Shown here piece by piece: positions 5,969 to 63,733 of a stretch of DNA of 64,000 nucleotides (positions within the stretch are counted from its first letter, which is position 1; every line of letters starts with the position of its first letter). The position numbers and the translations under genes are program-made. Below the pieces are notes generated by a model, which did not search any database, was not told the origin of the DNA, and saw only the letters and a program-made list of their open reading frames with translations. Source of the stretch: Pseudomonadota bacterium (GTDB lineage Bacteria; Bdellovibrionota_C; UBA2361; OMII01). The stretch covers positions 11,270 to 75,269 of the forward strand of contig JBKCMS010000065.1 in assembly GCA_046300175.1 (NCBI GenBank), read 5' to 3'.

Positions 5969-6008
5969 CTAGAGCTGATTAGCCCGAATATTGCACGAGA
6001 GTGCGATG
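5969..6008. promoter_or_regulatory. Hairpin in the 690-bp divergent intergenic region
   Basis: ttagcccgaatattgcac-gagag-tgcgatgttcgggctaa forms a ~17-bp stem with one mismatch. It lies 210 nt upstream of the 6217 methyltransferase. Confidence 0.25.
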
Positions 6009-6216
6009 TTCGGGCTAACAGGTGCATGGATGCACTTGCAAATTCCGAAGCGCAGCGTAGGAATTTGGAGCCTACAGTTTGTGTGGGCACTGTTGATAGT
6101 TGCCGTGTAGCTGCTATCGTCAGTTCCGAATATAATCTTCAAAGAGAGAAGATGTTCGTCGGATGATGTGCTATTTGCCTGTTATAGTTGTCTTTATCGG
6201 AAATTAACGGTGACTT

Positions 6217-28755: not shown

Positions 28756-28794
28756 CTTATCGCTATCAAGAGTGCTCAGAGAAGCTCGCCTCTC

Positions 28795-29997: not shown

Positions 29998-30297
29998 AAG
30001 ATCGGATGGTAGCTTGATGAGGATAGGTGTACCTGTTTAGCGGGGATGTGGCAACAGACTGGGTGCTTTTGAGCTTATCGGCGATTAGCAAATGTCCGTT
30101 CCAGTGAAACTTGCAAGGCTTTTTCCGTAAATCACTATAGGTTATCGTTCATTTGCTGATCCTAGAATAGATAGCGTTTTCGGAGAGCCAGGCTTTAACT
30201 GCGTACTTTTAAAAACGCTATATCTTCTCGGTTCTTTACGGTATCCCGTCTTTGGCTTAGAGTGATGAGGCCACGAATATTAGGGTAATTTAGCTCC

Positions 30298-31353: not shown

Positions 31354-33476
31354 AGTTTCACGTTAGGCTTGTAGAGAAATTCCTAGAGTTGCCCGAATGT
31401 CAGGTCGATGCTGCTGGAACTTCGCCGCTGCGGCATACCCTCGATGACATCGGACTTGAGGTTAAGGGAGTCGAGGCCAGTAGTGATGCAGGGGTGGTGT
31501 TTACCATCGAGACCCTTGCAAATCGTGGTGACCACCTCTACGCGCTCGGAGTAGCACGTGAGATATCAGCGCGTACTTTGGCGCAAATCAGCATGCCAAC
31601 CATTGCCGGTCAGCTCAGTGACCGCAAAGCATCGATCGTAGTTCGACGTGCCACCGATAAGTGTTCGCGTTATGCGCTCCTAGAGATGAGCCTACCGAAT
31701 CCAATGCCTTTGAGGAACGATGTAGCAGTCTTCATCGAGGAGCCTGGAAAAAGACACGCGATAGTCGATCTGCTCAATTTTGTGCAGATGGAATTGGGTC
31801 AGCCTATGCATGCATTTGATGCCAGTAAGGTTGACGGCGAGATCACAATCGATTGTGCGACCAAATTAGAGCAGGTAGAAGCGCTTGACGGGAAAACATA
31901 TCAGGTACCCGAGGGATCGATTTTGATTCGCGATCGCAAGAAGATACTAGCTGTTGCTGGAGTCATCGGATGTTCCAACAGTATGGTAACTGCCGAAACA
32001 ACTAAGGTCTACGTTGAGGCGGCGATCTTTGATCCGGTTTCTGTGAGGAAGACCGCCCGAGCCATGGGGCTCTCAACCGATGCATCGTACGCGTTTGAGC
32101 GAGGTGTTGACCCAGAGGGGATATCCCAGGCGCTCAAGCGCTTAGTCTACTTGGCGGGTGGTTCAGCCGGAGCAGCTAAAGACACGGGGGCAGCCCACGT
32201 CATTGGATATTCTTATGTCGAGTCAAACCCGCCAGAAAAACGGAAGCTGAGAGCTTCGCTCAGTTACATAAAGGAGCAACTAAATCTGCCGCGACTTGAG
32301 GAGTTGGAGGTCGTCACTCGCTTTAAAAACCTAGGATATGGCGTAGAGGTCACGCCAGTGGGCAAGGATCGCGAGCTGACTTTGCTTGTGCCTTCCTGGC
32401 GTCTTTACGACGTGGCGGGGATTGATGATCTGCTAGAAGATATCGCGCGTTCTGTTAGTCTTAATCGTGTGCGGCAGGAGCTCCCATCGCTGCAATACGA
32501 GGTATTGCCACGAAATCCAATTGAGGTCATACAATCAACCGTGCGGCCAGCACTGCGTGGATCTGGATTTGTAGAGGTAGTCACGCGCGGGTTTTATTCC
32601 GCGGCAGAGGTGCAGCTGTTAGATAGTCTGCACAAAGGCGTAGCTGCTCGACACGTCGCGGTCAAGAACTCGCTTGAGGCGAGCAATTCGCATATGAAAT
32701 ATTCTAATGTGGTGTTCCTCGCCCGTATTCTCGGAGCTAACCTAAAACGCGGAGTTGTAGCTCCTAAAGTATACGACTATACAAGGGTCTTTTCTTTGCC
32801 AGAGGAGGCCGTGACTGACGATCCTCGTCAGCGCGAGGATTTGGAGTATAACTACGAGCACGATGTGTTGACCTTGGCATCAGCTGGAAGGTGGACGGAA
32901 TCAGATTGGCGCAAGGGAGAGACTCTTGAGGAGTACAGTAGATTGTTCAAAGGGAGCATAGCCGCAGTAATCAAGAGCCTTGGAGCTGTGTTCTCTGTGG
33001 GCAAGAGTACCGACCCTTTTCTGCACCCAGGAATGCAAGCTTCGATTAAGATGGGGCGCAATGTAGTCGGCGTGTTCGGTGTGATTCATCCAACTATTAG
33101 AGAAGCGTGTGATCTACGGGTACCGGCTATGTATGGCGAGTTTGACTTGCGTCTTGTGCGAAAGTTCATGGGCAAGACTGAGAGTGTTGAGTTGAGCGAC
33201 TTGCCAGCTATCACACGCGATATAACACTGATGGTTGAGGCTAAAGAGCAGGCTGGACGGGTAGTGCGGCTGATTCGTGAGGCCCAGATCGCTACGCTCA
33301 AAGATGTGCAGATAGCCGATGACTTCACTAAGTCGGGAGAGGCATGTAGGCGAGTTACTTATCGAGTAGTGTTCCAGAGCAGGGAGCGCACCCTCAAGCA
33401 CGAGGAAGTTGACTCGGCGATGAGCCAAATCTTAACAGACCTTAAAGATAAACATGGTATCCTACTCGCTCAGTAG
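31350..33476 (+). CDS. pheT: Phenylalanine--tRNA ligase beta subunit (short form lacking the internal tRNA-binding/EMAP domain)
   Basis: LNFVQMELGQPMHAFD (B3/B4), FERGVDP and the C-terminal anticodon-binding FDVY-like region are present. At 708 aa it is ~90 aa shorter than E. coli PheT, with the N-terminal region jumping from B1 directly to B2. Confidence 0.9.
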   Translation: MKFHVRLVEKFLELPECQVDAAGTSPLRHTLDDIGLEVKGVEASSDAGVVFTIETLANRGDHLYALGVAREISARTLAQISMPTIAGQLSDRKASIVVRRATDKCSRYALLEMSLPNPMPLRNDVAVFIEEPGKRHAIVDLLNFVQMELGQPMHAFDASKVDGEITIDCATKLEQVEALDGKTYQVPEGSILIRDRKKILAVAGVIGCSNSMVTAETTKVYVEAAIFDPVSVRKTARAMGLSTDASYAFERGVDPEGISQALKRLVYLAGGSAGAAKDTGAAHVIGYSYVESNPPEKRKLRASLSYIKEQLNLPRLEELEVVTRFKNLGYGVEVTPVGKDRELTLLVPSWRLYDVAGIDDLLEDIARSVSLNRVRQELPSLQYEVLPRNPIEVIQSTVRPALRGSGFVEVVTRGFYSAAEVQLLDSLHKGVAARHVAVKNSLEASNSHMKYSNVVFLARILGANLKRGVVAPKVYDYTRVFSLPEEAVTDDPRQREDLEYNYEHDVLTLASAGRWTESDWRKGETLEEYSRLFKGSIAAVIKSLGAVFSVGKSTDPFLHPGMQASIKMGRNVVGVFGVIHPTIREACDLRVPAMYGEFDLRLVRKFMGKTESVELSDLPAITRDITLMVEAKEQAGRVVRLIREAQIATLKDVQIADDFTKSGEACRRVTYRVVFQSRERTLKHEEVDSAMSQILTDLKDKHGILLAQ

Positions 33477-40208: not shown

Positions 40209-40400
40209 GTGAAAATTGGAGAAATTATGAATACTCAGGAAAATAAGCAGGTAGCTGATTCAAATAATGAGCGTGGAGCGTCGATGGTTGAGTACGCGAT
40301 AATGGTGGCACTAATCGCCATTATTGCCATTGCAGCTGTTACAACGCTTGGACGTTCAGTCAGTAACCAGTTCAGCACGACCGCAGCGCAGATCAACTAG
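40209..40400 (+). CDS. flp: Flp-family type IVb prepilin
   Basis: RGASMVEYAIMVALIAIIAIAAV carries the GxxxxEY processing motif followed by a hydrophobic helix. It is ~60 aa. Confidence 0.75.
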   Translation: MKIGEIMNTQENKQVADSNNERGASMVEYAIMVALIAIIAIAAVTTLGRSVSNQFSTTAAQIN

Positions 40401-40684: not shown

Positions 40685-40888
40685 TTGTTCGAGATGCACA
40701 GTATGAAAGAATTAGAGCCTAATATGAGTGTTAAATCATGTGATCGGTCGAGCGATCAACGCGGCGCCTCAATGGTTGAATACGCGATAATGGTGGCCTT
40801 GATCGCTATAATCGCTATTTTGGCAGTTAGGACCCTTGGTAGAAGTGTTAGTAATCAGTTCAGCACTACAGCATCTCAACTTAACTAG
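40685..40888 (+). CDS. flp: Flp-family type IVb prepilin (second copy)
   Basis: The mature region ASMVEYAIMVALIAIIAILAVRTLGRSVSNQFSTTASQLN is nearly identical to the first flp gene. The start is uncertain, with several in-frame ATGs. Confidence 0.75.
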   Translation: MFEMHSMKELEPNMSVKSCDRSSDQRGASMVEYAIMVALIAIIAILAVRTLGRSVSNQFSTTASQLN

Positions 40889-47615: not shown

Positions 47616-49925
47616 ATGAACGATGCCGGACAACAGAAGTTGCTTGAGCAATCAGCAGAGGACCTTTGGGTAGCCGAATCGCGGCTCGGAGCAGTACTTC
47701 ACGCCGACAGCTATCTAGCCCACGGAGTTGAAGATAGGGACGATCTTATCCTGTGGCTTTCGCGCGATAGTCTCAAAACAGAAGAGCAAGAGATGTTTCT
47801 GGGGCACGCCGAAGGGCTAGTCTCGGTTTGTGAAATTGACGAGATCGAATACGGAGTAGAGTCTCAGGGCCGAGGATTTGTTGTCATACGAAACGGCAGC
47901 ACGCAGGGAGTTCTCGCTGGAGCTCTAAGTCCAATTACTGCACGTAATCGATTTCTCATGTGCTTAGCGATTGTATCTCGCATACACGATTCGGGCGTGG
48001 CCTGCGGAAATATATCTGATAGTAGTTTCTCAGTAGACTCGTTCGCAGTGGTTCGTTTTGTTGGATTGCTGGGGGGCTATCGGGATCCCCAGCCAACCAT
48101 GATCTCGCCTGAGTTATTGCGGTTTATTAAGCCCGGAGATGCTACGCCGGGAGAGCCATCGACAGCAGCAGACGTTTACGCATTAGCGGTTCTGGGGTTA
48201 ATGCTTTTTGGGGTATCGATTCCCTTAGGTGCAGTAGATCCGGCGCGAATTGACGAGTACTTAAAGAGTGTGCCAGCGGGAGCACCATCATGGGTGGTAT
48301 CTGTTTTGGGTGTACTTGTTCGGGAGCCAGAGCGCGGATTCTGTAGCGATGCTAGCGCCGTTATACACGCGATCGCTGGTAGAGATGCTGAATGGTTAGA
48401 GGGTCTAAAGCAGGACGACCCGACGAAACTACAAGGCTCAAGAGATGAAAAGGCGCTAACGCTCTTTGAGATTCAGAAGCTTCTTGGGCTGCAAAAGGGA
48501 TCTGACGGCAGAAATAAAGATATCGCGCGGCAGAAGCGGTTTATTCTCGCCGCTGTTGCAGGATTTATAGCGTGTGTGGCAGGGCTATTATCCATCGATA
48601 AGGCTGGTCAGCTTGGTTACTTACCGCGAGGGAAATGGGGTTTTGAAGCTGCCAATGAAGAAACAGCTATGCCACTCTCGGCTGTGATGCGTAGCTTGGG
48701 TAGGTTGCGTGGAGGAGGAGTACACAGCTTAGGGTCTCACCCCGGAGGTGCTGGAACAGCACTTGAGACACACGCAAAAAAATCTGGCGCGGTCACAGAA
48801 GGTTTACAACAGGGGGGAGTTGAAAGTGGGGAGGCGGTGGGTTCGCTGGCTGAGGTGAATATGGCTCATGATGAGGAGCTCCTGAGCCATATCTCTGAGG
48901 GTTCGGTTGCACCTGATGAACACCCTTTAGTGTTTGAGCTGTACGACAAGCTTAATCAGCAGTCTAAAGCGCTCATAGCAAAAGCGTATGTCAAAAGTGG
49001 CGGTGAATCAGAGAGGCTATTTAAGGATTTTTTACAGAAAAGGTCACAGCGGAGCGCTTTGGTCGGCCAGTCACATCCTAACGAAATCTCGACAGATGCG
49101 TGGTTCCTGGCGAGTGAGTTGCGTCTAACGAGGCAAGTGGCGCAGGAGTGGGGGCGAGCAGGGGCCCTTTCTCCAGATGAGCTTTGGTGGTTAGCGGAGA
49201 TTTTAGCGAAAAAACGTGCACCTCTATTCGGGTATATCGCCCAGGAAATGGTTAAGCGAGGGATAGTGCCGGAACCTCGTGCTATATTCCTTGGCGTAGC
49301 TGCAGAAGCTAACGAGACGAGTGGGGTGCCGTATGAGGTTCTATTTCGGCTCACTAGAGACGAGCCTAATTTAGCAGATGTGGGTGTATTTACGAGTTGG
49401 AGCGGCGCGGAATCAAGTAGGGCTCTGTTCGGTGTGGTGCTATCTTCCTCACAGCCCGAAGTCATTCAAGGAGCTCTTAGCAGTTTAGTCGATAAGCCCG
49501 GCACCAGCGAGCTTGTCCGCTCTGTGCTTGAGTTCCTTAATGCCCGCGAAGATAGCCAGGCTGTGACACTCGCGCCGCTAATTGGTGCATTGGGTTTATT
49601 GGGTACTACAACGGAAGCGGTGCTAGAAAATGGTTTAGAAAATTTGCGAACGTATCCAGATAAAGCCGAAATTCTCACGATTTTGCTCAATAATGGGTCT
49701 ACGGAGCTTGCGCTTGAAGTGTTGCGAGTATTTGGCAGCGAAATTCATCCTGGATCGATTATTCCTTTACTTAGTCGCTCGGAACCAAGAATCAAAAGAG
49801 CCGTTATCCCACTGCTCTCTGATGTGCGCGTTGCCTCGTTGAAGGCAAGTATTAGAGAATACTACGAGGCTGAGTCCGATCCCGAGTTGAGACGCTTGTT
49901 TGAGCAGCACCTCTTTACTCCCTAG
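47616..49925 (+). CDS. Large cytoplasmic protein: predicted N-terminal pseudokinase-like domain plus C-terminal HEAT/PBS-lyase-like repeats
   Basis: FLMCLAIVSRIHDSGVACGNISDSSFSVD...VRFVGLLG aligns with a kinase catalytic loop and DFG region, but the catalytic Asp and Lys are missing. ISPELLR and DVYALAVLGLMLFG are APE-like and subdomain IX-like segments. The C-terminus shows repeated ~30-aa alpha-solenoid units. The whole assignment rests on unaided pattern recognition. Confidence 0.4.
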   Translation: MNDAGQQKLLEQSAEDLWVAESRLGAVLHADSYLAHGVEDRDDLILWLSRDSLKTEEQEMFLGHAEGLVSVCEIDEIEYGVESQGRGFVVIRNGSTQGVLAGALSPITARNRFLMCLAIVSRIHDSGVACGNISDSSFSVDSFAVVRFVGLLGGYRDPQPTMISPELLRFIKPGDATPGEPSTAADVYALAVLGLMLFGVSIPLGAVDPARIDEYLKSVPAGAPSWVVSVLGVLVREPERGFCSDASAVIHAIAGRDAEWLEGLKQDDPTKLQGSRDEKALTLFEIQKLLGLQKGSDGRNKDIARQKRFILAAVAGFIACVAGLLSIDKAGQLGYLPRGKWGFEAANEETAMPLSAVMRSLGRLRGGGVHSLGSHPGGAGTALETHAKKSGAVTEGLQQGGVESGEAVGSLAEVNMAHDEELLSHISEGSVAPDEHPLVFELYDKLNQQSKALIAKAYVKSGGESERLFKDFLQKRSQRSALVGQSHPNEISTDAWFLASELRLTRQVAQEWGRAGALSPDELWWLAEILAKKRAPLFGYIAQEMVKRGIVPEPRAIFLGVAAEANETSGVPYEVLFRLTRDEPNLADVGVFTSWSGAESSRALFGVVLSSSQPEVIQGALSSLVDKPGTSELVRSVLEFLNAREDSQAVTLAPLIGALGLLGTTTEAVLENGLENLRTYPDKAEILTILLNNGSTELALEVLRVFGSEIHPGSIIPLLSRSEPRIKRAVIPLLSDVRVASLKASIREYYEAESDPELRRLFEQHLFTP

Positions 49926-49970
49926 GAAGTGTTTAAAGTCAATTTTCCTCGGGGCTCGCCCGAGACTTAT

Positions 49971-50154
49971 AAACCCAGCCTCATTCATTTTTGAAAAAAA
50001 TGAATGAGAATAGTCCCACGTTTATCAGCAACTAGATAGTCTCTTTCTGGAGCTAGAGTTTTTTGTCTTCTGCGGCGCAACTTGGCTACGCCAAGATTGC
50101 GCTCGCCCTGCAATTGCGAGTGATTTTTTTAAAAAATCACTCGCGCAGGGTTTA
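49971..50154. repeat. REP-like intergenic element (long form) with two internal palindromes
   Basis: The ends aaacccagcctcattcattttt and aaaatcactcgcgcagggttta recur contiguously at 58573-58620. The internal palindrome is ccctgcaattgcgagtgattttttt/aaaaaatcactcgcgcaggg. Confidence 0.6.
49980..50008. terminator. AT-rich hairpin 55 nt downstream of the 47616-49925 gene
   Basis: ctcattcattttt-g-aaaaaaatgaatgag forms a 13-14 bp stem. It is part of the left end of the REP-like element. Confidence 0.35.
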
Positions 50155-50243
50155 TGCAGAAGTCTTTGCCAGTGAAACCGGCAAGGCTTTTGCTGTAGTT
50201 CACTATAGGGTATTGTTTCAATGCGCCTCAGTGAATAGGTATA

Positions 50244-50422
50244 ATCCTAAAAACGGCAGTTGCGGGTCCCAAAACGGCGCATCCGGCTAAAATCACTGCG
50301 GCTTTTGAATTTCCGGTGCTCACCCTGACGGTGCCAGGGTTCCGCGCCGAAAATATCAAGATCCTTTGTGCTTTTAACCAGCTGCACCATTTTGGTCCAC
50401 CTTACCTGCCGTTTTTAGGATA
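50244..50422. ncRNA. Candidate structured RNA: ~180-nt long imperfect hairpin (6S-RNA-like architecture)
   Basis: The termini pair perfectly: atcctaaaaacggcag (50244-50259) with ctgccgtttttaggat (50407-50422). The extended arms pair imperfectly: gggtcccaaaacggcgcatccggctaaaatcac against the reverse complement gtggaccaaaatggtgcagctggttaaaagcac. The element lies in a 560-bp non-coding gap. Confidence 0.3.
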
Positions 50423-50482
50423 ATTTTCCAAAAGAATGGGTTTGCTACGAACTCCGAAAAAACGCTTTATTAGCTTCAAAAT

Positions 50483-51064
50483 ATGTCTTCTGTGATATTG
50501 AACACTCTGCAGTGGCTTAAAGCCAGAACGCGATTGTGGTCGTTTATGCTGTTAGTGTCTTTAAGCGCATGTTCCTCAGTTTCTCCGGATGCTCTTCTGC
50601 TTGTTGGGCAGCCAGTTCCTGATGGTAGGCTTATGTTGATGCGCGGCGATGATATCGCTCTTAAAAACACTCAGGGGCGGCACAGAGCTATATTGTTTTG
50701 GGCAACGTGGTGTGCGCACTCGCGTAGCGTTATAAGTCAATTTGAGGATTTAGCGCGAACTTATGCGAGTCGTGGTGATACCGATTTTTTTGCTGTTAAT
50801 CTGGATCGAAATGAAGATATAGCCGGTGTAAAGGAGCGAATTGAAGCTCAAGATCTCACTACCGTAACCCACGTATTCTCGGGTAACGATGTTCAGGATG
50901 AGGCATTCCTTGCGCTTAAAGGGGATCACGTCCCGTACTCTGTGTTTGTCGATCGAGATGCGATCGTGAGGTATGTAGGGCTTGGGGTAGGTGGGCTCGA
51001 AGATTTCTTTGAGCAGCGACGAGAAGCAGCAGATAAGAGGGCGCTAGAAGAGTACCCGGGCTAA
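50483..51064 (+). CDS. TlpA/ResA-like thioredoxin-fold lipoprotein (CxxS variant)
   Basis: The lipobox LLVSLSAC is present. LFWATWCAHS is a WCxxS thioredoxin motif. The size is ~190 aa. Confidence 0.65.
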   Translation: MSSVILNTLQWLKARTRLWSFMLLVSLSACSSVSPDALLLVGQPVPDGRLMLMRGDDIALKNTQGRHRAILFWATWCAHSRSVISQFEDLARTYASRGDTDFFAVNLDRNEDIAGVKERIEAQDLTTVTHVFSGNDVQDEAFLALKGDHVPYSVFVDRDAIVRYVGLGVGGLEDFFEQRREAADKRALEEYPG

Positions 51065-53363: not shown

Positions 53364-53647
53364 GGCTTTTTGCGCCCATATAGTCCTGATTTTGGGCGGC
53401 TCCAAAGAGTGCCACGAACCACGCCCGGGCTTAGGCAAGATGGGGTTGTAATTGCCTGGAATATTAGGACTGGGCTCAGAATTCAGTCTTCGTTGCGTAG
53501 CGCGGCCACTTGAGGGATAAATAGTAGTAGCTCCAAAGTCGCTGGCGAAGGATCGCAGCTGCCTAGGTGCAAGGTGCGGCCAAGGTACAACCAAGGCGCG
53601 GCAGCGGAAGCGTGGCGAGTAGTTGGAATCGAACAAGGAGAGATAAA

Positions 53648-54916
53648 GTGAGCAAATCCGGCGATAAGAACAGAAACACCCTTATTTGTTCATTTTGCAA
53701 CCGTTCTCAGGAAGAAGTACGTAAGTTAATTGCCGGTCCATCTGTATATATCTGTGATGAGTGCATAGAGCTTTGCAATGAGATTATCCGTGAGGAGGTG
53801 GACACGGACGTAGTGGCGCCAACATCTTCAAAGGTGCCCAAACCAAAGGAGATTAAATCGTTTCTTGATCAATACGTAGTAGGGCAGGACTTTGCAAAAA
53901 AAGCTCTCTCTGTAGCAGTACATAACCACTACAAGAGGCTAGAGGCAAAGACCATCGGCGGTGATGTTGAGCTTTCGAAATCTAATATTCTTTTGATCGG
54001 CCCGACCGGCACAGGAAAGACTCTTCTTGCCCAGACTTTGGCCAGGATACTTCAGGTGCCTTTTACGATCACTGATGCCACTACCTTAACAGAAGCGGGA
54101 TACGTCGGTGAGGATGTAGAGAACATAATCCTCAATCTACTGCAGAATGCTGATTACGACGTAGAAAAGGCGCAGCGGGGAATCGTCTACATAGACGAAA
54201 TAGATAAGATATCGCGCAAGGCCGAAAATCCATCGATTACTCGAGATGTTTCGGGAGAAGGAGTCCAACAAGCGCTGCTCAAGATGCTTGAAGGCACAGT
54301 TGCAAGTGTGCCACCAAAGGGTGGAAGGAAGCATCCTCAGCAGGAGTTCTTGCAGGTCGACACGAGTAATATTCTTTTCATCTGCGGTGGGGCTTTTGTT
54401 GGCCTAGAGGATATTATTCGGCGTCGTGTTGGTGAGAAGAGACTTGGTTTCGGTGCGCATGCAAAGAATGCCAAGGATGTGGAGAAGTCCAAGAAGGATG
54501 AGAAGCGATCGCTGCTTAGCATGGTGCAACCGGAAGATCTGCTAAAGTTTGGATTGATTCCGGAGTTCATTGGTCGATTGCCGATGATAGCCGTGTTGGA
54601 TGATCTCACAGAAGGTGCGCTGGTCAAAATTCTCGTGGAGCCAAAGAACGCGCTGACCAAGCAGTACAAGAAGCTCTTTGATATGGAGAATGTTCAGCTT
54701 AGATTTTCTGAAGGTGCGCTACTAGCGGTTGCTAAACAGGCTATCGAGCGTAAGGCTGGAGCACGAGGACTTAGAGCTATCCTTGAATCAATCATGCTCG
54801 ATGTGATGTACGATGTTCCGTCAGAGCCGGATATTAAAGAGGTTATCGTGTCTGAAGACACGGTATTAAAGGGCGAGAAGCCACTGATTGTATACCAGCA
54901 CGCAGAGTCTGCTTAA
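53648..54916 (+). CDS. clpX: ATP-dependent Clp protease ATP-binding subunit ClpX
   Basis: The zinc-binding N-domain is CSFCNRS...CDEC, Walker A is GPTGTGKT, Walker B is IVYIDEIDK, and GYVGEDVE is present. The start is GTG 53648 with an AAGGAG RBS 7 nt upstream. The ORF-track start at 53567 is too long for ClpX. Confidence 0.95.
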
Positions 54917-54949
54917 CCATGTCTGCTTAACCATGTTTGCTTAACCATC
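54908..54949. repeat. 14-bp tandem repeat x3 (tctgcttaaccatg) spanning the clpX stop codon
   Basis: Three direct copies are present. The first contains the TAA stop of clpX. Confidence 0.7.
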
Positions 54950-55124
54950 GCTCCGCAAACGGCGTTTGCCTAATTGAGCTGCCGAATTTCATAAGCTCCA
55001 TGATCCAGATGCTGACTGTCCCCCTGTGTTGGCAATTAGCTTTAGGAGGAGCGTAAAAGCATCCAAAAAGCTTTGGAGATAGGCAGCCGAACAAAGGGCA
55101 GCTTTGGACGATTTACTCGGAATA

Positions 55125-55271
55125 TATAGCGTTCTCCAAAAGTCCGCGAGAAATACCGGCTTTTGGCGAACTCTAGCTATTCACGGACGCGAATCAAAAC
55201 AACAACCTATGGTGATATACGGCAAAAGCCTTGCCAGTTTTACTGGCACAGATTTTTGCACAACATCATAG
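55125..55271. repeat. 147-bp intergenic repeat family, copy 1 (clpX-lon spacer)
   Basis: It is tatagcgttctccaaaag...gcgaatcaaaacaacaacctatggtgatatacggcaaaagccttgcca...caacatcatag. Visual alignment puts it at roughly 80% identity to the copies at 62384 and 63586. Confidence 0.8.
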
Positions 55272-55627
55272 GTAAAGCGGGACATATAGGCGACAAAAAA
55301 ATTCGCTGCGTCTCTCGATCACTAGCTCGATATATCATTGCTGGATTATTGTGGATTTTTTATCCCTCTACTAGCATCATACTAAGACAGATAAACGTCA
55401 GTTGTGGGCTGCACACACTTTTTGGTTTTGATCTAAAGATGTAGTGTGAAGCTGCGCATAGAATGCTACTCTGAGTGTAGTAAATACAAATGGTTAAGCT
55501 TGGCTTGATCGAATTTCTCGCGGAGGTTGCTGCTCAATGACCAGCTCGTTGAGTGAAACCTAAGCAGCGCTGAGATTCGGCCAAAGATGGTTTGGCCCGT
55601 AAGTGTGACAACCTGAGAAACAATAGA

Positions 55628-58087
55628 ATGAAGCCACCGATTACAAATCCCATCCCTCTCCTCCCACTCCGCGAGCTTGTTGTTTTCCCGCAGCAGGTCG
55701 TGCCGCTTTTCGTGGGTCGAGAAAAGAGCGTGCGTGCTATCGAAGAATCTCAGCGTGAAGGGAAGTATATCTTCCTTGCCGCGCAGAAGGATGCTCGAAC
55801 GAGCAACCCCGGCGCAAAAGATATATACACGACCGGAACGCTCGGTGAAGTAGTTCAACTTATTAGATTGGCAGATGGCCCGATCAAAGTTCTAGTCGAG
55901 GGTAAGTGTAGGGCGCGTATTAAGAAATTTGTGCGCGAAGATGACTTCATGCTTGTTGATGTCGAGGAGATCCTTCCTAACCTCGAAGTTTCAACTGAGC
56001 TAAAGGCGCTCATGCGCTCTGTGAATATGACCTTTGAGAACTACGTCAAGCTCGGTAAGAAGGTCAATCCAGAGATGATCATGCAGGTCAACGCGATCGA
56101 GGACCCTTCTAGGTTAGCAGACGCTATCGTAGTGCAGCTTAATATCAAGCTTGAAGACAAGCAGGAGATACTAGAGACGATCGAGCCGCAAGAGCGACTT
56201 GAAAAGATTCTGGGTCACATGAAATCTGAAATAGAGATTCTCCAAGTAGAGAAGCGCATACGCAGCCGCGTTAAGAAGCAGATGGAGAAGACTCAGAAGG
56301 AGTACTATCTAAACGAGCAGATGCGCGCAATCCAGAAAGAGCTGGGAGAGAAGGACGACTTCCGCAATGAGATTCAGGAGCTTGAGGCTAAGTTCAAAGA
56401 CAAAGATATGCCTGAGGATGCTCGCGAAAAGACTGAGAAGGAGATTCGCAAGCTCAAGATGATGTCGCCAATGTCTGCTGAAGCCACAGTGGTGCGTAAT
56501 TACGTAGACTGGATGTTGGCTTTGCCGTGGAATGAGTGCTCTAAAGAGGGTATTGAGATCGACAAGGCTCGTGATGTGCTCGATGAGGATCACTACGGCC
56601 TTGAGAAGGTGAAGGAGCGAATTCTTGAGTACTTGGCGGTACAGAAGCTGGTGGGCAAGATGCGCGGTCCGATTCTGTGCCTTGTTGGTCCTCCAGGAGT
56701 AGGAAAAACATCTCTAGGCAAGTCGATAGCTAAATCTACAGGAAGAGAGTTCGTTCGTGTAGCACTAGGTGGAGTACGAGATGAGGCTGAAATTCGTGGC
56801 CACCGCCGTACTTATATCGGAGCCTTGCCTGGTAAAATCATTCAGTCACTCAAGAAAGCAGGCACGAGTAACCCTGTGTTCCTGCTCGATGAGGTTGATA
56901 AGATGTCGACCGATTTCCGAGGCGATCCATCATCGGCGCTGCTAGAGGTGCTAGATCCTGAGCAGAACGATAGCTTTAACGATCACTACCTGGATTGTGA
57001 CTATGACCTGTCGAAGGTGATGTTTATTACCACAGCGAATTCGTTACACACGATTCCAGGGCCTCTGATGGATCGTATGGAGATCATACGACTATCGGGG
57101 TACACGGAGCTTGAAAAGATAGCGATCTGTAAAAAGTACCTGATAGAGAAACAGTTGCAGGAGAATGGACTAAAGTTGGAGAACGTGAAAGTTGATGATG
57201 GTGTCTACTCGGATATTATCAATCGATATACGCGAGAGGCGGGCGTTCGTAACCTAGAGCGCAACGTTGCCACGCTCTGCCGAAAGGCGGCGATCGAGGT
57301 CGTTGAGAAGGGTCCGGACACGTTGGTTCATATAACTACTGACAATCTCCCCAAGTTCCTCGGTCAGCCTAAGTTCCGCTTTGGAAAATCCGAGGACCTT
57401 GACCAGGTTGGTCTTGCCACGGGTCTGGCGTGGACCGATAAGGGCGGAGAGCTTCTAGTTATTGAGACCACAGTATTGCCGGGCCGCGGCCGCCTGCAAA
57501 TTACTGGTAAGCTCGGTGATGTGATGCAGGAGTCAGCGCGGGCGGCGCTGAGCTATGTTCGTTCGCGAGCAGCAGTGTTCGGCTTGCCTCGATATTTCTA
57601 CGATAAAGTAGATATCCATGTGCACGTGCCAGAGGGAGCTATTCCGAAAGATGGTCCATCGGCAGGTATCACCATGGCCACATCTATTGTATCAGCGTTG
57701 ACCGGTATTCCGATCGACAAGCACATAGCGATGACCGGAGAGATTACTCTTCGAGGGAATGTGCTGCCGATAGGCGGGCTGAAAGAGAAAGCTCTTGCAG
57801 CACATCGCGGTGGCATAAAACGAGTTCTATTCCCGAAAGAGAATGAGAATGACATCGAAGAGATTCCAGCAACAGTTCGTAACGAACTAGAGCTCATTCC
57901 CGTCGCCCATGTAGACGAGGTGCTCTTTGAGGCTTTGCAGTGTCGTAGCGCCCAGGATTTTTCCGCTATGTTGGCAAACAAGAAGGTGCGTGACGAGCTA
58001 CTGTATGCAGATGAGAAGAAGAAAGAGGAGCGTGGTGATGGCGAGGCTCGTGAGGATAAGCAGAGCGCCAGCATCGTAGCGCACTAA
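55628..58087 (+). CDS. lon: Lon protease
   Basis: The N-domain is [12 protein letters not shown], Walker A is GPPGVGKTS, and the catalytic Ser is in [17 protein letters not shown] (S-K dyad). Start chosen at ATG 55628. Confidence 0.95.
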
Positions 58088-58428
58088 GTTAAACCGGCTG
58101 GCCTCAGTGCGGCCAGACGTGTTTCCGTTATTAGCACAGCGCAACTAACCCAGATGGATTGGTCCTGCGCTGTGCCAGCTATTCAGCTTTAATGTCAACC
58201 CTTGAGCGCGTGTGGCCGGGCATTGCAGCACGCACATAGCCCCAGGAATCCTAAGGTGTTGGGCCCAGGTCACCGGCGTTTTGCCAAGGGTTGACTTTTA
58301 AACCTAAAATCGATACTTTTTTCTCCCTGCTAGGTGCACATTGAGCGCTCTCAAGCGTTTCTAGCGAGCATTGAGGCAGCAACGACATTCAGCTCCCCGC
58401 GAAGCTGTTTGTTTCCTGGTAATCTTGC

Positions 58429-58504
58429 GGGCGCTTAGCTCAGTTGGTAGAGCGTCAGCCTTACAAGCTGAATGTCGTAGGTTCGATCCCTGCAGCGCCC
58501 ACCA
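58429..58504 (+). tRNA. tRNA-Val (anticodon TAC), CCA encoded
   Basis: The sequence is GGGCGCTTAGCTCAGTTGGTAGAGCGTCAGCCTTACAAGCTGAATGTCGTAGGTTCGATCCCTGCAGCGCCCACCA. It has a 7-bp acceptor stem and the anticodon loop CTTACAA. Confidence 0.9.
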
Positions 58505-58572
58505 TCATCCTCCTACCACGATTTCTGAATTTGCGACTCGAACTGCCCGGCTGAATTGGTCAGATATTAGTT

Positions 58573-58620
58573 AAACCCAGCCACATTCATTTTTTTCAAA
58601 AATCACTCGCGCAGGGTTTA
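58573..58620. repeat. REP-like intergenic element (short form) matching the fused ends of the 49971-50154 element
   Basis: It is taaacccagccacattcatttttttcaaaaatcactcgcgcagggttta. It overlaps the stop codon of the 58618-59187 gene. Confidence 0.6.
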
Positions 58621-59187
58621 ATTCTCTGGAGTCTGTGTTCCAGACGGGGTAGGGGTGGGAGTCGGTTCCGAGGTGTCCGAGTCGACATAAATACTTCGAC
58701 GCTCCTTGGGTGTAAAGCGCGGGGACTTAGGATCAAACTCCTGACTATCGGGAATAGACGGATCGTTATTATCGAGGTCGACCTCTATGAAGCCGCGCTT
58801 ATCTCCGGTAATGCCTTTGACGTTAAACGAAAGAGATATAAAGTCCCCACCAAGGGCATCACTTGGATGTAGGAAGAAAACCAGAAATCTTTCATTATCG
58901 GTAGCTACTCGATCATCTGGTGATGTTTGGCGCTCCTCATCGCGATTGGGAAAGAGAACGGCACTCCCTTTGACATATAGAAGTGATTTTGAGAGCCGTA
59001 TTTTAAGCAATGAGCCATTTGGATTAATGTCTACTACTTCAAGAGAGACCCGATTTAAATCGCCTGAATCGATGTGATCACGCTCAAGGTCAAGGGCTAT
59101 AGTGCCTGCATAGTTAGTGTCGCTGCCACCACCACCGCCGCAGGCAGTAATCAATGTAGCTAGCGCGATGGTGAGGATAATTTTCAT
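58618..59187 (-). CDS. Hypothetical lipoprotein
   Basis: The lipobox LITACGGGGG is followed by a TPTPTP-rich C-terminus. Confidence 0.5.
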   Translation of the reverse strand: MKIILTIALATLITACGGGGGSDTNYAGTIALDLERDHIDSGDLNRVSLEVVDINPNGSLLKIRLSKSLLYVKGSAVLFPNRDEERQTSPDDRVATDNERFLVFFLHPSDALGGDFISLSFNVKGITGDKRGFIEVDLDNNDPSIPDSQEFDPKSPRFTPKERRSIYVDSDTSEPTPTPTPSGTQTPEN

Positions 59188-59388
59188 GGTGGTGGCAAAG
59201 TTCAGTAATCCTAGACTACGATGCGATCTTGGATGCCAGGGATTCTAAGAGCTCTTGTACCTAGCAACCTAAAAGCGGAAGTCACGGGTATTAAAAAAGG
59301 TCAATACACACAAAAGTCGCAATAATTTTGATTATCTGCGCTAGTTTTCAGGGCTGCTCTTTCTCTATTTGGCCTCAATTAAAGCGGA

Positions 59389-60216
59389 CTAAACCAACAC
59401 CTCAAAACCGCCCTTTGGGTTACGCCCAATGCGTGCCAGAGCGGTATCTCGGTCGTGCTGAAAGCAGACAGTGGCATTTAGGGCCGTAGCGCGCTCTAGG
59501 AAAGATAACTTCTCCCGAAGCAGCGTATCCGCGCAGACATCGTAGCCCATATGAAAAGGTAGCGGCACGTGGTGTGACGTTGGGATTAAGTCGGTCGGGA
59601 AAAACAGTCGAGGGTTTGATTCACTACTACAGTTGCCTATTTCGATCCACTGTTGGCCAGGTGTGTGCCCATCAACGCGGTGAACCTTGAGATCGGGGAG
59701 TATTTCTAGCGTGCCGTCGTAAAGCTGTAGGTCGGCCGACCGTAGAGGTGCGATATTCTCTAAGAGGTAGCTGGCCCGATCTTTCGGGGTGGGATTATTG
59801 GCGCGCTCCCAGTTTGCAAGCTGAAGGTGAACTTTTGCTCGCGGATAAGTTAGTGCGAGCTCGCCATCAGAGGTGATATGAGAGATCCCTCCAGCATGAT
59901 CAAAGTGAAGATGGGTGAGTACTACATCTGTAATCTCTAATGGATCGAATGAAAGCTCGCGAACAGGGGTGGTATCTATTGCATAAATCTGGCGCAGTTT
60001 GTCATTCCATTTATCTCCCGTTCCAACATCGACCAATATCTTGCGTGAGTCATCTTCCAGGAGAAGTGAACGGCACACTAGCGGTATGCAATTATCAATG
60101 TCGGCAGGTATGCTCTTGTTCCAGAGGGTCTTAGGAACAGAGCCAAACATGCTTCCTCCATCGAGCCGGAAGGCACCGAATACAACCAGGCTGACTGAGT
60201 ATCGTCCAAACTGCAT
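59389..60216 (-). CDS. MBL-fold metallo-hydrolase
   Basis: THLHFDHAGG is the HxHxDH metal-binding motif. Confidence 0.75.
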   Translation of the reverse strand: MQFGRYSVSLVVFGAFRLDGGSMFGSVPKTLWNKSIPADIDNCIPLVCRSLLLEDDSRKILVDVGTGDKWNDKLRQIYAIDTTPVRELSFDPLEITDVVLTHLHFDHAGGISHITSDGELALTYPRAKVHLQLANWERANNPTPKDRASYLLENIAPLRSADLQLYDGTLEILPDLKVHRVDGHTPGQQWIEIGNCSSESNPRLFFPTDLIPTSHHVPLPFHMGYDVCADTLLREKLSFLERATALNATVCFQHDRDTALARIGRNPKGGFEVLV

Positions 60217-60326
60217 TGTAGCTCCTCATACATTAATCAAAAAAGAGCAGTTGAGATCCTTTTATCCTGATTAACCGCTTTTTTTAGTTTTAATAAATAG
60301 ATCCTTTCACGTATCTTGTTACTGCG

Positions 60327-61121
60327 CTATTTGCTTGTGCTGTTTTTCCATCGCGGAGAACGTTTCTCAGAAAATGCTTGAATACCCTCGTTTGCCTCGT
60401 CCGAAAGGCTCACTAAAGCGCTACGATCAGCTAGCTCGTGCAAGCAACCCTTGCCGCTCAGAGTACGTAGTTCCAGTAGGTTCGCCTTGGTTGCACGCAC
60501 GGCGTTTGGCCCCCGCTGAGCGATCACGTTACAGAGAGCTAGGGTCTCATTGAGGGCTATATCCTTCGGGACAGTGCGGGATATAAGCCCGATTCGGAGT
60601 GCTTCAGCCGCTCCAATACGCTCTGCAGAGAGAGCCAGATACGATAGTCCACGACCGGACACCACCTTAGAGAGTGGAGCTGCTACCACCAATGGAGCAA
60701 GGCCTACAGCGACCTCTGGTAGGCCAAATTGGGCATCATCAGCCGCGATCGCGATATCTGAGGCCGCCACGAGCCCTAGGCCGCCTGCCAACGCAAATCC
60801 ATAGACTATGCATACTACAGGAGGGGCGCACTCCTGAATCGCCTGCACGAGCGTGGCAATCGCGCTAAAGAACTCCCGGCGGGTGGCTGGAGACTTGGCG
60901 TTGTTGAGCTCCTGCAGGTCGGCCCCTGCACAGAATGCCTCTGTACCACTTCCACGTAAGAGCACGCAGCGCACGGCAGGGTCTATACTTAGCCCTGTAA
61001 AGGCCGTTGTGAGCTCGCCGATGGTCTTCATATTGAGGGCGTTACGCGCCTCGGGGCGATTGATTGTTACTGTGGCGATATGCTTCTCAATATGAACGCT
61101 GATGTGCGAGTAACCTGTCAT
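60327..61121 (-). CDS. Enoyl-CoA hydratase/isomerase (crotonase) family protein
   Basis: AFCAGADLQEL is the oxyanion-hole motif and GFALAGGLGL is present. The size is ~260 aa. Confidence 0.85.
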   Translation of the reverse strand: MTGYSHISVHIEKHIATVTINRPEARNALNMKTIGELTTAFTGLSIDPAVRCVLLRGSGTEAFCAGADLQELNNAKSPATRREFFSAIATLVQAIQECAPPVVCIVYGFALAGGLGLVAASDIAIAADDAQFGLPEVAVGLAPLVVAAPLSKVVSGRGLSYLALSAERIGAAEALRIGLISRTVPKDIALNETLALCNVIAQRGPNAVRATKANLLELRTLSGKGCLHELADRSALVSLSDEANEGIQAFSEKRSPRWKNSTSK

Positions 61122-61125
61122 AGTG

Positions 61126-61905
61126 TCACCTTATCTGAGGGAAGAGAGTCAGTGCATTACGGGTAGTTATCGCTGCTACCTCTTCAAGCGACAAGCCTTT
61201 AATCTGCGCAAGCATCTTGGTTGTCTCAACGACAAAAGCTGGCTCACAACGTTTTCCCCTGTAAGGTTCTGGTGCAAGGTATGGAGCGTCAGTTTCGACA
61301 AGTATCTGCTCGAGAGGAATGGCCCTACAAACCTCACGAACCTGGTGAGCTTTTTTGAAGGTCAGTTGACCAGGAAAGGATACTCGAAAATTAATCTCCC
61401 GGAGCCTTTCCGCAAATTCGGCGTCCTCTGAGAAGCAGTGAAATACCCCGCCCACATCGCCTGCATGATGCCTGATTAGCGTATCGAGAGCTGCCACAGC
61501 AGCGTCTCGAGAGTGGATGATTAGCGGTTTCTTACTCTTTCGAGCTATGGCGATCTGGACTTCAAATATCTGATGCTGAGCTTCAATAGGCGCCCAATCG
61601 CGAAAAAAATCGAGTCCAGTTTCGCCAATCGCCACAACTTTTTCATGTTGCGCGAGAGTTTCTATTAAGCTTAGGTCAAGCGCTGAATCAGCGTTGTGCG
61701 GATGCACACCAACAGTAGCCCACACCATCGGATAACTCTCAGCTAATGCGATAGCTCGAGATGCGCCAGAAAGACCTCCGCCAGTTCCAATCGTGATTAA
61801 ACGGGTAACTCCCGCTTCAGTTGCGCGCCTGATAACCTCATCTCTATCCAGTTCAAAAGGCTCCGAATCGAGGTGGCAATGAGTGTCGATTATCTCGATA
61901 GCCAT
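61126..61905 (-). CDS. tatD: TatD-family metal-dependent hydrolase
   Basis: MAIEIIDTHCHLD is the HxH motif, GETGLDF is present, and the protein is 259 aa. Confidence 0.9.
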   Translation of the reverse strand: MAIEIIDTHCHLDSEPFELDRDEVIRRATEAGVTRLITIGTGGGLSGASRAIALAESYPMVWATVGVHPHNADSALDLSLIETLAQHEKVVAIGETGLDFFRDWAPIEAQHQIFEVQIAIARKSKKPLIIHSRDAAVAALDTLIRHHAGDVGGVFHCFSEDAEFAERLREINFRVSFPGQLTFKKAHQVREVCRAIPLEQILVETDAPYLAPEPYRGKRCEPAFVVETTKMLAQIKGLSLEEVAAITTRNALTLFPQIR

Positions 61906-61919
61906 ATCAGGTCAACGCA

Positions 61920-62354
61920 CTACCGGACACGTGCACCAGCCTGGATCGGCTTGTCCGGGGAGAGTAGGGCAAGCACTTCATCGCCTTCAGTCGATGCAGC
62001 TAATAACATACCACGACTCTCAACTCCCATCAGCTTGGCAGGTTTGAGATTGGCAACTATAACAATCTGCCGGCCGACAAGCTGCTCCGGCGTGTAGTGC
62101 AGAGCTATCCCGGATACTATTTGACGTTTACCCAGCTCTCCAACGTCTAGCTGAATCTGGTACAGTTTTTTTGACTTTGGAACTGGCTCCACCTTCTCAA
62201 TCGTCGCAACTCTGAATTTGATCTTTGCAAATGTCTCAATGTCGATCTCGTCACTAGCAGGTGGAACGATTGCTGGCTGCGAGGGCTGCTGTTGCAAATT
62301 GTTGGGCTCGCCACATGCCGTTACTGGTAATTTTTGAGTGTCGTTTGATTCCAT
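61920..62354 (-). CDS. Stand-alone tRNA-binding protein (EMAP/Myf domain, CsaA/Trbp111-like)
   Basis: KFRVATIEKVEPVPKSKKLYQIQLDVGE...IVANLKPAKLMGVESRGMLLAAS is an OB-fold tRNA-binding domain as found in MetRS-C and PheT. Confidence 0.75.
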   Translation of the reverse strand: MESNDTQKLPVTACGEPNNLQQQPSQPAIVPPASDEIDIETFAKIKFRVATIEKVEPVPKSKKLYQIQLDVGELGKRQIVSGIALHYTPEQLVGRQIVIVANLKPAKLMGVESRGMLLAASTEGDEVLALLSPDKPIQAGARVR

Positions 62355-62383
62355 CAGATATCCTCCAGGGTACTAGGCGCATA

Positions 62384-62530
62384 CTATAGCGTTTGCCAGC
62401 AGTCTGTAGCGAAATTCCACCTTTTGGAAAACGCTATCGATTCGCGGAAGCGAATCAAAACAACGACCTACAGTGATTTACGGCAAAAGCCTTGCTGGTT
62501 TGCCGGCACGGACTTTCGACAGGCAATATA
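62384..62530. repeat. 147-bp intergenic repeat family, copy 2
   Basis: It is tatagcgtttgccagcag...gcgaatcaaaacaacgacctacagtgatttacggcaaaagccttgctgg...caggcaatatag. Confidence 0.8.
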
Positions 62531-62560
62531 GCTCAGAATGCTCTTAAATGGCCAGTGAAA

Positions 62561-63580
62561 CTAACTCAGAGCTCGCTCCCACACCGGGGCGACCGAGTTT
62601 GGCGTAGTTTGATACGCATGCCCCAGTTTCTGATTGCAGCTCTTCAGAACCGCAAGAATAGCTAGCGTGGCATTTACATGGCGATCGAGCACCAAGTATT
62701 CCGCGTCGATTGCATTCTGTAGGGCGTGGGCCCACACTGTGGCAGCATTGGGGTCAGCAGCATGATTCAAAAGTCGCTCACGGATAGCGGTTCGGAGAAA
62801 GGTTATTCTCTCGCGCATTCCGGTTTTGTCCGCAGCCCAATCCTGGGCGGCCTTGGCGATAGTTGCGATGTCGCCACGCCAAGCGGCATCAAGTGCTGCT
62901 GTAATCTGTTCAGGTAAGTCGCTCCTTGCGTGAATTGATTCCAGTGCCGCACACGAACCATTGGCAAAAGGAATAAGAGCGCGCTGCTCCTCACTGGCTC
63001 CGTGCTGAGATGCTATCTGATCCAGCTCACTATCGGAGAGACGGTCAAAAAACCAACGCTGACAGCGCGAGAGCACTGTTTGTGGCAATCTCGATGGTGT
63101 TGTAACGATCAAGATAAAAAAGTTCTCAGGCCTTGGCTCTTCAAGGGTTTTAAGCAGGATATTAGCGCCCACGGTTGAGATATTGTCAGCATCGTTTAGG
63201 ATGGTGACCTTACGTAGCCCGAGAAAGGGACGCAGACTGAGTTTTTCGAGAGTGCTGCGTAGGTCATCAACCGAAAGACCCTCTTCGCTCCATTCCAGGG
63301 TGCGCAGATCAGGATGATTACCCGACCTGATAAGCCGACATGCCTGACATTCCCCACACCCACCGTAATTTTCCAGAGGGGGAGCCGCTTCGCTGGCGAT
63401 GCAAAGTAGCCGAGCAGCCAATTCACGAGCTACCAGCCGCTTGCCAACACCAGCAGGGCCACTAAATATAAGGGAGCTTGGTAAACGCTCCTCAGCAACG
63501 AGCGCTGCTAACGCTTTGCGTTGATGAGAGTGGCCAATCAAGGTACAATTTGTTGATGATAACGGCATGTTTAACGGCAA
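62561..63580 (-). CDS. holB: DNA polymerase III subunit delta'
   Basis: The AAA+ Walker A is SGPAGVGKRLVA. The zinc module is CGECQAC and ILNDADNIS is present. The 5' end is uncertain, with an internal ATG a few codons in. Confidence 0.8.
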   Translation of the reverse strand: MPLNMPLSSTNCTLIGHSHQRKALAALVAEERLPSSLIFSGPAGVGKRLVARELAARLLCIASEAAPPLENYGGCGECQACRLIRSGNHPDLRTLEWSEEGLSVDDLRSTLEKLSLRPFLGLRKVTILNDADNISTVGANILLKTLEEPRPENFFILIVTTPSRLPQTVLSRCQRWFFDRLSDSELDQIASQHGASEEQRALIPFANGSCAALESIHARSDLPEQITAALDAAWRGDIATIAKAAQDWAADKTGMRERITFLRTAIRERLLNHAADPNAATVWAHALQNAIDAEYLVLDRHVNATLAILAVLKSCNQKLGHAYQTTPNSVAPVWERALS

Positions 63581-63585
63581 AATGT

Positions 63586-63733
63586 TATAGCGTTGTCCAA
63601 AAATCGGCAGCGAAATACCGCCTTTTGGACAACTCTATCGATTGGCGGATGCGAATCAAAGCAACAATCTATAGTGCTATACGGCAAAAGACTTGCCACT
63701 TTTACAGGCCCGTACTTTTGCGCAACATTATAG
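63586..63733. repeat. 147-bp intergenic repeat family, copy 3
   Basis: It is tatagcgttgtccaaaaatcggcagcgaaataccgccttttgg...gcgaatcaaagcaacaatctatagtgctatacggcaaaagacttgcca...caacattatag. Confidence 0.8.

Follow-up and report, generated by a model that had tools for sequence, protein, structure and literature searches.

The Correia/NEMIS elements of Neisseria are orphan MITEs (transposable elements of the miniature inverted-repeat type) that duplicate a TA target and have no known cognate transposase (PMC2229807, PMC10969869). Here we describe a repeat of 147-148 bp, called family 1 below, in a 64-kb stretch of DNA (the window; contig JBKCMS010000065.1 of assembly GCA_046300175.1, positions 11,270 to 75,269) from a bacterium labelled Pseudomonadota and placed by GTDB in Bdellovibrionota_C. 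The original prediction had picked out three ~147-bp copies around clpX-lon and holB, and had offered a multicopy small RNA (sRNA) gene, a structured regulatory leader, and a non-autonomous mobile repeat as possible explanations. Family 1 has in common with Correia/NEMIS i) a length of 100-155 bp without coding capacity; ii) terminal inverted repeats (TIRs) of ~24 bp starting 5'-TATAG, with a duplicated TA; iii) copies that number more than 100, lie between genes, and often sit a short way upstream of one; and iv) transcripts that form long hairpins. We hold with considerable confidence that family 1 is a non-autonomous, TA-duplicating MITE; it is thus the last of the three explanations that is borne out, in the form of a MITE with TIRs rather than of an element of the repetitive extragenic palindrome (REP) type.

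The comparison with Correia also turns up differences. Only the terminal CACTATA is alike in sequence (local alignment to an approximate Correia sequence scores 11, where shuffled sequences average 9.5 and reach at most 19); Correia elements form one end-to-end hairpin and carry IHF sites and promoters, whereas family 1 has two independent arms and a linker hairpin, and lacks any internal promoter-like site except a weak match covering the last 7 nt of one window copy (copy 2); and the host phyla differ. The RUP element of Streptococcus pneumoniae resembles family 1 in its TA duplication, size of ~100-150 bp, TIRs, and location between genes or within mobile elements (PMC2229807), but RUP TIRs match those of IS630-Spn1, while no insertion sequence (IS) with family 1 TIRs was found in the loci searched. 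IS630-type transposons and MITEs derived from them by deletion do occur in the same lineage and the same window as family 1, which is at best a 'type II' MITE (PMC10969869). The CIR repeats of Caulobacter and Brucella likewise consist of two long inverted-repeat arms and a linker, with TA termini and conserved GANTC, are closed in all six frames, strictly intergenic, and highly conserved between species; they are, however, reported (PMC2229807) to lack TIRs and any known target duplication, both of which family 1 has. Nor is GANTC constrained in the window, as would be expected for repeats of the CIR type: it is not under-represented (255 observed, 280 +/- 16 expected). Finally, REP/REPIN repeats, which RAYT transposases mobilise, share with family 1 the hairpin structure, the intergenic location, copy numbers in the hundreds, and units that also occur singly, but family 1 differs in having TIRs and a TA duplication and in lacking a conserved tetranucleotide of the GTAG type at the foot of its hairpins.

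To retrieve family 1, a degenerate 29-nt pattern matched by each of the five window copies was run against a single genome from every species. The 98 stretches recovered came, every one, from eight metagenome-assembled genomes (MAGs) labelled Bdellovibrionota, Bdellovibrionales, Bacteriovoracaceae, and, in one case, 'Pseudomonadota'; a profile search (nhmmer) of ~550 kb from these eight MAGs gave 169 matches, 85 of them full length. One contig of a Lake Mendota Bdellovibrionota MAG (JBIIHY01) is 99.8% identical to window positions 28585-31506. More than 30 real contig ends fall within a family 1 copy, the usual sign of a high-copy repeat breaking short-read assemblies, and it is because family 1 repeats break assemblies that the MAGs of this clade are so fragmented. 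Viral contigs gave no family 1 matches, and plasmids only marginal ones in Leptospira (E 0.009-0.4). The latter, at 80-87% identity to consensus positions 36-90 in blastn, lie within RHS/SpvB toxin genes at up to 7 places per plasmid in L. noguchii (e.g. NZ_CP091939 20732-20785), and are probably due to chance.

The ends of the element are sharp. In 73 full copies analysed with 40-nt flanks, conservation starts abruptly at 5'-TATAGCG and stops abruptly at CACTATAG-3', where the final G of CTATAG is the last conserved base; outside these limits nothing is conserved, apart from a scarcity of G at position -1. The end motif is TATAGYGWTYTKCAAAAGTC, and the TIRs are imperfect and ~23-25 bp long, reading TATAGCGTTTTTCAAAAGTCCGT at the 5' end and TATAGTGATTTGCAAAAGTCCGT from the opposite end; of the first 25 nt, 20 agree with the reverse complement of the 3' end. 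Almost the whole interior consists of additional inverted copies of the same arm. Module A is a hairpin of ~54 bp (positions 1-54); the linker contains a small hairpin, ATTCGCGGANGCGAAT; and module B is a second long hairpin of ~65 bp (positions 83-148), bounded by CTATAGTGAT and ATCACTATAG. The predicted fold of the consensus is exactly these three hairpins (-72 kcal/mol, z -12.7), and the two strands fold about equally well, as for a DNA palindrome. Conservation exceeds 90% in the linker too, which is not part of the TIRs, and two GANTC motifs are conserved in its hairpin. The element is A+T-rich, and copies essentially never lie within long open reading frames (ORFs). Copies are also seen in tandem, nested within other repeats, and as half-elements, and modules A and B and deletion variants are found alone as well; solo modules and deletion variants are as expected of transposon debris.

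What the insertions did to their targets was sought by joining the flanks of each copy and searching the joined sequence against all loci, which yielded two clean paralogous pairs of filled and empty sites. The copy at L098:415-562 sits within a 185-bp repeat of a second, unrelated family (family 2), of which more than 100 empty paralogues exist; the empty site reads GGTG-CCA-GGGTT and the filled site GGTG-TTA-[TAG...CTA]-TA-GGGTT. For the copy at L052:1484-1631, the empty site, in L063, reads GCAGC-GAG-CTTCG and the filled site GCAGC-TA-[TAG...CTA]-TA-G-CTTCG. In both pairs the filled site is longer than the empty one by exactly the length of the element and 2 further bases, and a TA stands on either side; tandem copies, in L038 and L089, have one common TA. 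As far as sequence comparison goes, the paralogous pairs and the tandem junctions thus fit duplication of a TA target, a feature that had been proposed for inspection when the repeats were first noticed.

Family 1 therefore has every testable feature that defines a bacterial MITE (PMC2229807, PMC10969869) except a known parent: a size below ~200-300 bp with no coding capacity, TIRs, a target duplication, and many dispersed copies that differ in presence or absence between genomes. We found no report of MITEs in Bdellovibrionota in reviews or by full-text searches; family 1, which is scattered through the gene spacers of certain uncultured freshwater Bdellovibrionota, has not been described before, and is an ordinary kind of selfish repeat.

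TA duplication over 2 bp, combined with TIRs, is the hallmark of IS630/Tc1-mariner transposition, and we infer that a transposase of the IS630/Tc1 type acting in trans probably moves family 1. RUP and Correia provide bacterial examples of the combination (PMC2229807). A DDE transposase, most likely of this type, would bind the arms in trans, excise the element, and paste it at a TA dinucleotide in the target N-TA-G, with the TA being duplicated. We also infer that any residual effect of the window copies on neighbouring genes is likely to be passive: they would lengthen spacers and 5' leaders, and would place long hairpins in read-through transcripts, for example that of the holB operon.

Several observations weigh against a TA-duplicating MITE moved in this way. 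i) The empty paralogues in both pairs lack a TA, so that the sequence before insertion is itself reconstructed; at the L098 site, however, the variants TCA and CTA occur among the paralogues, and a TA-bearing copy of the target is therefore plausible. ii) A G follows the 3' TA in 65 of the 73 copies, with no mirror-image C on the 5' side, and such asymmetry is unusual for a transposon with TIRs; in both pairs the 3' G belongs to the target, giving N-TA-G in the orientation of the element. iii) In strain-level contigs of the window species, the sites of copies 2, 3, and 4 are all filled, with no polymorphism for presence or absence. iv) Between MAGs, copies are 87-95% identical over the whole 148 nt, compared with 64-74% for orthologous genes. 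v) No autonomous partner with matching ends has come to light: Pfam finds no transposase domain in the ~50 ORFs of the window; all-against-all ORF clustering finds no multicopy ORF in the loci; approximate RAYT-like and Tc1-like queries matched nothing in ~620 kb, which is a weak negative; and a metagenome scan for a TIR followed by a non-MITE interior gave 4 matches, none with a transposase (one deletion variant, one palindrome of a related kind, and a pair of solo TIR-like sites). A TIR search outside known copies found no such partner either. IS copies are usually lost from MAGs, which limits these negatives. For now, family 1 is an orphan like Correia.

The only IS630-type element recovered is a different one. 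The holB spacer of L121 (871 nt) holds a TA-flanked element, TAAACCC...GGGTTTA, with a decayed HTH_23/HTH_29 reading frame; its ends have the form TAAACCC.GC ... GC.GGGTTTA with a terminator-like hairpin at either end. The versions found are:

L122 520-1859: 1.34-kb version with a frameshifted DDE transposase bearing the IS630/Tc1 signature ...VADNARYY...LPPYS...NLIERLW...
L121 3497-4243: decayed version of ~750 bp
49970-50154 of the window: deletion derivative of 185 bp (type I MITE)
58572-58620 of the window: deletion derivative of 49 bp (type I MITE)

The protein homologues found for this element are all short fragments (49-153 aa), and tblastn of the loci with the transposase fragments of L122 found that other IS family only. 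TA-duplicating transposons of the IS630 type have thus been active in this lineage, but the TAAACCC-type element is not the parent of family 1, because their ends are unrelated, sharing at most a short subterminal AGTGATTT...AAAA; TIRs that match a host IS630, by which a MITE mobilised by IS630 would be recognised, are therefore not seen for the L122/L121 element, and this too counts against our preferred explanation. A family 1 copy also lies in the HTH region of an IS630-like transposase gene remnant (L086 102-370; L122 440-520), reminiscent of RUP, for which a tendency to enter IS elements is reported.

Within the window, the three plus-strand copies first noticed do align over their full length, with a mean column identity of 87%, and a profile made from them rescored each at E 1e-46 to 1e-48 in a search of the window; the block GCGAATCAAARCAAC occurs 4 times at <=2 mismatches, against 0.34 expected. 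Two details of the initial description needed correction: copy 2, given as 62384-62530, is better placed one base further on, whereas the limits of copies 1 and 3 stand; and of the four blocks described as conserved, three are present in all three copies while caacatYatag is present in copies 1 and 3 only. Two further copies lie on the minus strand, so that the shared orientation, correct for the three, does not extend to the family. The five copies in 64 kb (3 on the plus strand and 2 on the minus strand), with the repeat nested in one of them, are:

55125-55271, plus strand: copy 1 of the 148-bp element (alignment; nhmmer E 3e-41, profile positions 1-148), within the 675 nt that separate clpX (53567-54916) from lon (55592-58087), flanking genes by Pfam
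62385-62531, plus strand: copy 2 (alignment, nhmmer), with the holB stop (62561) on one side and the beginning of a tRNA_bind-domain gene (62354) on the other, antisense to the operon
63586-63733, plus strand: copy 3 (alignment, nhmmer), the best kept of the window copies, with hairpins at ~63587-63638 (module A), ~63640-63657 (linker), and ~63669-63733 (module B)
30081-30222, minus strand: copy 4 (nhmmer E 1.6e-31, profile positions 1-143, plus alignment), more decayed, within the divergent spacer, 300 nt long, that separates an MFS transporter gene (28795-29997, minus strand) from pheS (30298-31353, plus strand)
50149-50239, minus strand: 3' part of copy 5, module B plus linker (nhmmer E 2e-19)
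50425-50470, minus strand: 5' part of copy 5, module A remnant (nhmmer alone weak, E 0.3-0.5)
50240-50424, no strand assigned: family 2, an unrelated 185-bp MITE with ends ATCCTAAAAACGGCAG ... CTGCCGTTTTTAGGAT and TAA flanks, nested in copy 5

Copy 5 is full length but split, because the family 2 repeat is nested within it: once 50240-50424 is excised, its two parts align globally with the consensus over its full length, starting at position 1. At its outer terminus the copy touches or overlaps the end of the 185-bp TAAACCC-type derivative, and its 5' part stops ~12 nt short of the ATG of a redoxin/AhpC-TSA-family gene (50483-51064; Pfam).

As originally described, the copies lie in non-coding spacers, and two of them, copies 2 and 3, bracket holB; copy 3 begins 17 nt past the holB ATG (63568), antisense to the gene, and the 5' end of copy 2 is 30 nt from the ATG of its neighbour. 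The operon, [gene]-holB-tRNA_bind-TatD-ECH, is conserved in relatives whose HolB proteins are 73-76% identical, and its spacers compare as follows:

P0004 contig (226 kb): 3 nt upstream of holB, 14 nt downstream
L119 (no family 1 match): 19 nt upstream, 100 nt downstream
Window: 354 nt upstream, 206 nt downstream

Because the holB spacers of relatives measure 3-100 nt, copies 2 and 3 are insertions in an operon that was tight ancestrally; the window spacer is too diverged from the empty L119 spacer for alignment at the level of bases, and the comparison uses lengths and the absence of the family. In CAZZLV (L045), the spacer downstream of clpX is 81 nt long and empty, and a family 1 copy lies just upstream of clpX instead. 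The spacer downstream of holB, on the other hand, holds a family 1 copy in the same orientation both in the window (62385-62531) and in the CAZZLV MAG (L027 8-55); holB is only 68% identical between them at the nucleotide level, and the flanks are unalignable, so that shared ancestry and independent insertion cannot be told apart.

The window copies are 64-82% identical to each other, and each is ~78-80% identical to the family elsewhere, a star-like pattern that is one of neutral decay. They fold at only -44 to -46 kcal/mol (z -3 to -5), much of the consensus hairpins being lost. No strain-level contig of the species is without a copy at the sites compared; the insertions are old and fixed. 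We conclude that the five window copies are old, fixed, decaying intergenic insertions, and that they are probably no longer mobile.

The high identity between MAGs deserves separate consideration, since a purely selfish model in which only the TIRs matter does not require conservation over the whole length. Copies are ~90% identical in CAZZLV and JAYVGZ. The identity between MAGs could reflect recent amplification of conserved masters, horizontal spread, retrieval bias (the exact 29-nt pattern lies in module B and biases conservation upward), or selection. We give a small but real chance to the possibility that family 1 is an orphan, Correia-like TA-MITE in which the entire 148 nt is held at 87-95%, either through ongoing spread between species by an unrecognised transposase or through selection for a host role such as the provision of RNase III sites, the punctuation of transcripts within operons (as at holB), or protein binding at the invariant linker hairpin.

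A closely related but rather improbable alternative is that the repeat, transposon-derived, has been domesticated and is now selected for a host function, such as binding a factor of the nucleoid or of methylation, processing by RNase III, or stabilising transcripts, much as has been proposed for Correia, ERIC, or Caulobacter CIR repeats. Consistent with this, the copies are far better conserved between MAGs than orthologous genes; the non-TIR linker hairpin with its two GANTC motifs is among the conserved parts; the two arms and linker resemble the CIR description (PMC2229807); and a copy of like orientation occupies the spacer downstream of holB both in the window and in CAZZLV. The window copies nevertheless decay freely, with stems broken and GANTC lost in several; the lack of GANTC depletion gives no sign of a CcrM-type regime; retrieval by the module B pattern inflates the conservation; and recent amplification of a conserved master, or horizontal spread, would produce the high identity between species equally well.

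Somewhat less probable still is a REP/REPIN-like or IS200/IS605-type palindrome, mobilised in single-stranded form by an HUH (Y1) transposase, for instance a RAYT, that would recognise hairpins rather than TIRs. The element is indeed made of long hairpins, each module can stand alone like a REPIN, the arms of one hairpin co-vary at the level of subfamilies (e.g. columns 10/54), and the two ends differ, the G at 3' having no C at 5' to match it. The sites tell otherwise: the 4-5-nt 5' target that IS200/IS605 elements require is absent, positions -8 to -1 being unconserved in the 73 copies, and filled sites exceed empty ones by the element plus 2 with flanking TA, whereas HUH elements duplicate nothing. 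Moreover, the outer ends are true inverted repeats (20/25), the element is 148 bp and A+T-rich compared with 20-40 nt and G+C-rich for REPs, and no RAYT-like ORF was matched in the ~620 kb, with the caveat already given for this approximate query.

We consider it very unlikely that family 1 is a family of sRNA genes or a structured cis-regulatory leader, in which a three-hairpin RNA of ~150 nt would act on targets or on the adjacent gene. The very stable predicted fold of the consensus, the strong conservation of the whole sequence between species, and the position of the 5' end 12-75 nt from a gene start in 4 of the 5 window copies could be so read, and double-sided changes are slightly more frequent than in shuffles (24 cells compared with 10.8). 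The stems seen in the initial analysis are real, but the compensatory substitutions reported with them are weak: over 78 copies, 93.0% of cells are paired compared with 92.6% in column shuffles, and the 24 double changes stand against ~300 unpaired cells. The few compensations there are, such as columns 10/54, split subfamilies, as would be expected if one protein must recognise both arms in propagating masters. Both strands fold about equally, as those of a DNA palindrome do, and the window copies are decayed. Rfam 15 has no relevant match at gathering or permissive thresholds, giving just two tRNAs in the window at the former and, as its best permissive match, a chance miRNA (E 0.11). A consensus promoter scan found nothing within the copies save the weak match in copy 2 mentioned above (9/12; 62554-62525, minus strand), and terminator-like features are weak, the inner hairpin being best in copy 1. 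Orientation relative to neighbouring genes is unbiased in 58 contexts (16 sense, 20 antisense, 10 convergent, and 12 divergent). Copies occur in tandem, nested, and shortened, and position is not kept in relatives, as the empty clpX spacer of L045 and the short holB spacers attest.

A local segmental duplication around holB and clpX-lon, without wider meaning, might have accounted for three copies within 8.6 kb in one orientation, but is effectively refuted by the two further window copies, 5 and 25 kb away on the opposite strand, by more than 160 copies in eight other genomes, and by flanks that are not duplicated. A small protein gene was ruled out, as first supposed, by the consensus, which has stops in all six frames; no one ORF is conserved across the copies.

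Family 1 is not the only repeat of its kind in these genomes. The family 2 repeat nested in copy 5 has more than 35 blastn matches in the loci at 75-87% identity, and family 2, with a unit of ~185 bp and ends (A/T)CCTAAA(A/T)TCGGCAGTTGCGGG ... CTGCCG(A/T)ATTTAGG(A/T), recurs at more than 100 places across L001-L098. With one TAA counted as a duplication, copy 5 has the length of the consensus; this fits a 3-bp TAA duplication, which suggests a transposase class different from that of family 1. The 557-nt spacer that contains copy 5 (49926-50482, between a gene at 47616-49925 and the redoxin-family gene) is taken up almost wholly by three MITEs that nest in or abut one another: one of the TAAACCC type, copy 5, and, within the latter, family 2. 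A third dispersed repeat, at 5979-6091, is a run of successive hairpins (tagcccgaatattgcacgagagtgcgatgttcgggcta...) spanning ~115 bp; blastn matches it 27 times in the MAG loci, where it often adjoins family 1 and family 2 copies. On a freshwater metagenome contig (L108, ~600-700), a related perfect palindrome, TATAGTACTTTTCTAAAAGTTCGTAGCGATAATTCGCTACGAACTTTTAGAAAAGTACTATA, with the same kind of ends lies beside a family 1 TIR, and suggests a wider set of TATAG-ended hairpin elements.

Other features of the window are of different kinds. Upstream of copy 1, three tandem copies of tgcttaaccatg (tctgcttaaccatgtctgcttaaccatgtttgcttaaccat) run from the last bases of clpX, whose stop ends at 54916, into the spacer (54910-54950). 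Direct repeats of 134 nt that are 73% identical (40267-40400 and 40755-40888, 488 nt apart) lie just upstream of RcpC/CpaB - T2SSE - T2SSF (tad/flp pilus) genes, and could be small paralogous genes in tandem, for example flp pilins. Positions 1-27000 contain a cluster of the glycan/O-antigen type, in which methyltransferases, epimerases, and glycosyltransferases (GT2 and GT4) stand alongside a Wzm/Wzt ABC exporter, and the first 27 kb hold only one repeat insertion, that at 5979-6091.

Family 1 is useful for annotation and assembly rather than surprising in kind: stretches such as these should be masked as mobile repeats, and not annotated as sRNA genes or small ORFs. The insertions within the essential holB operon are natural tests of how far long mRNA hairpins are tolerated; and if family 1 is still active in relatives, it would offer a second system, besides Correia, in which to find the enzyme of an orphan TA-MITE. 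More broadly, at least four MITE families have filled the spacers between genes in these freshwater Bdellovibrionota, whose genomes are reduced and compact.

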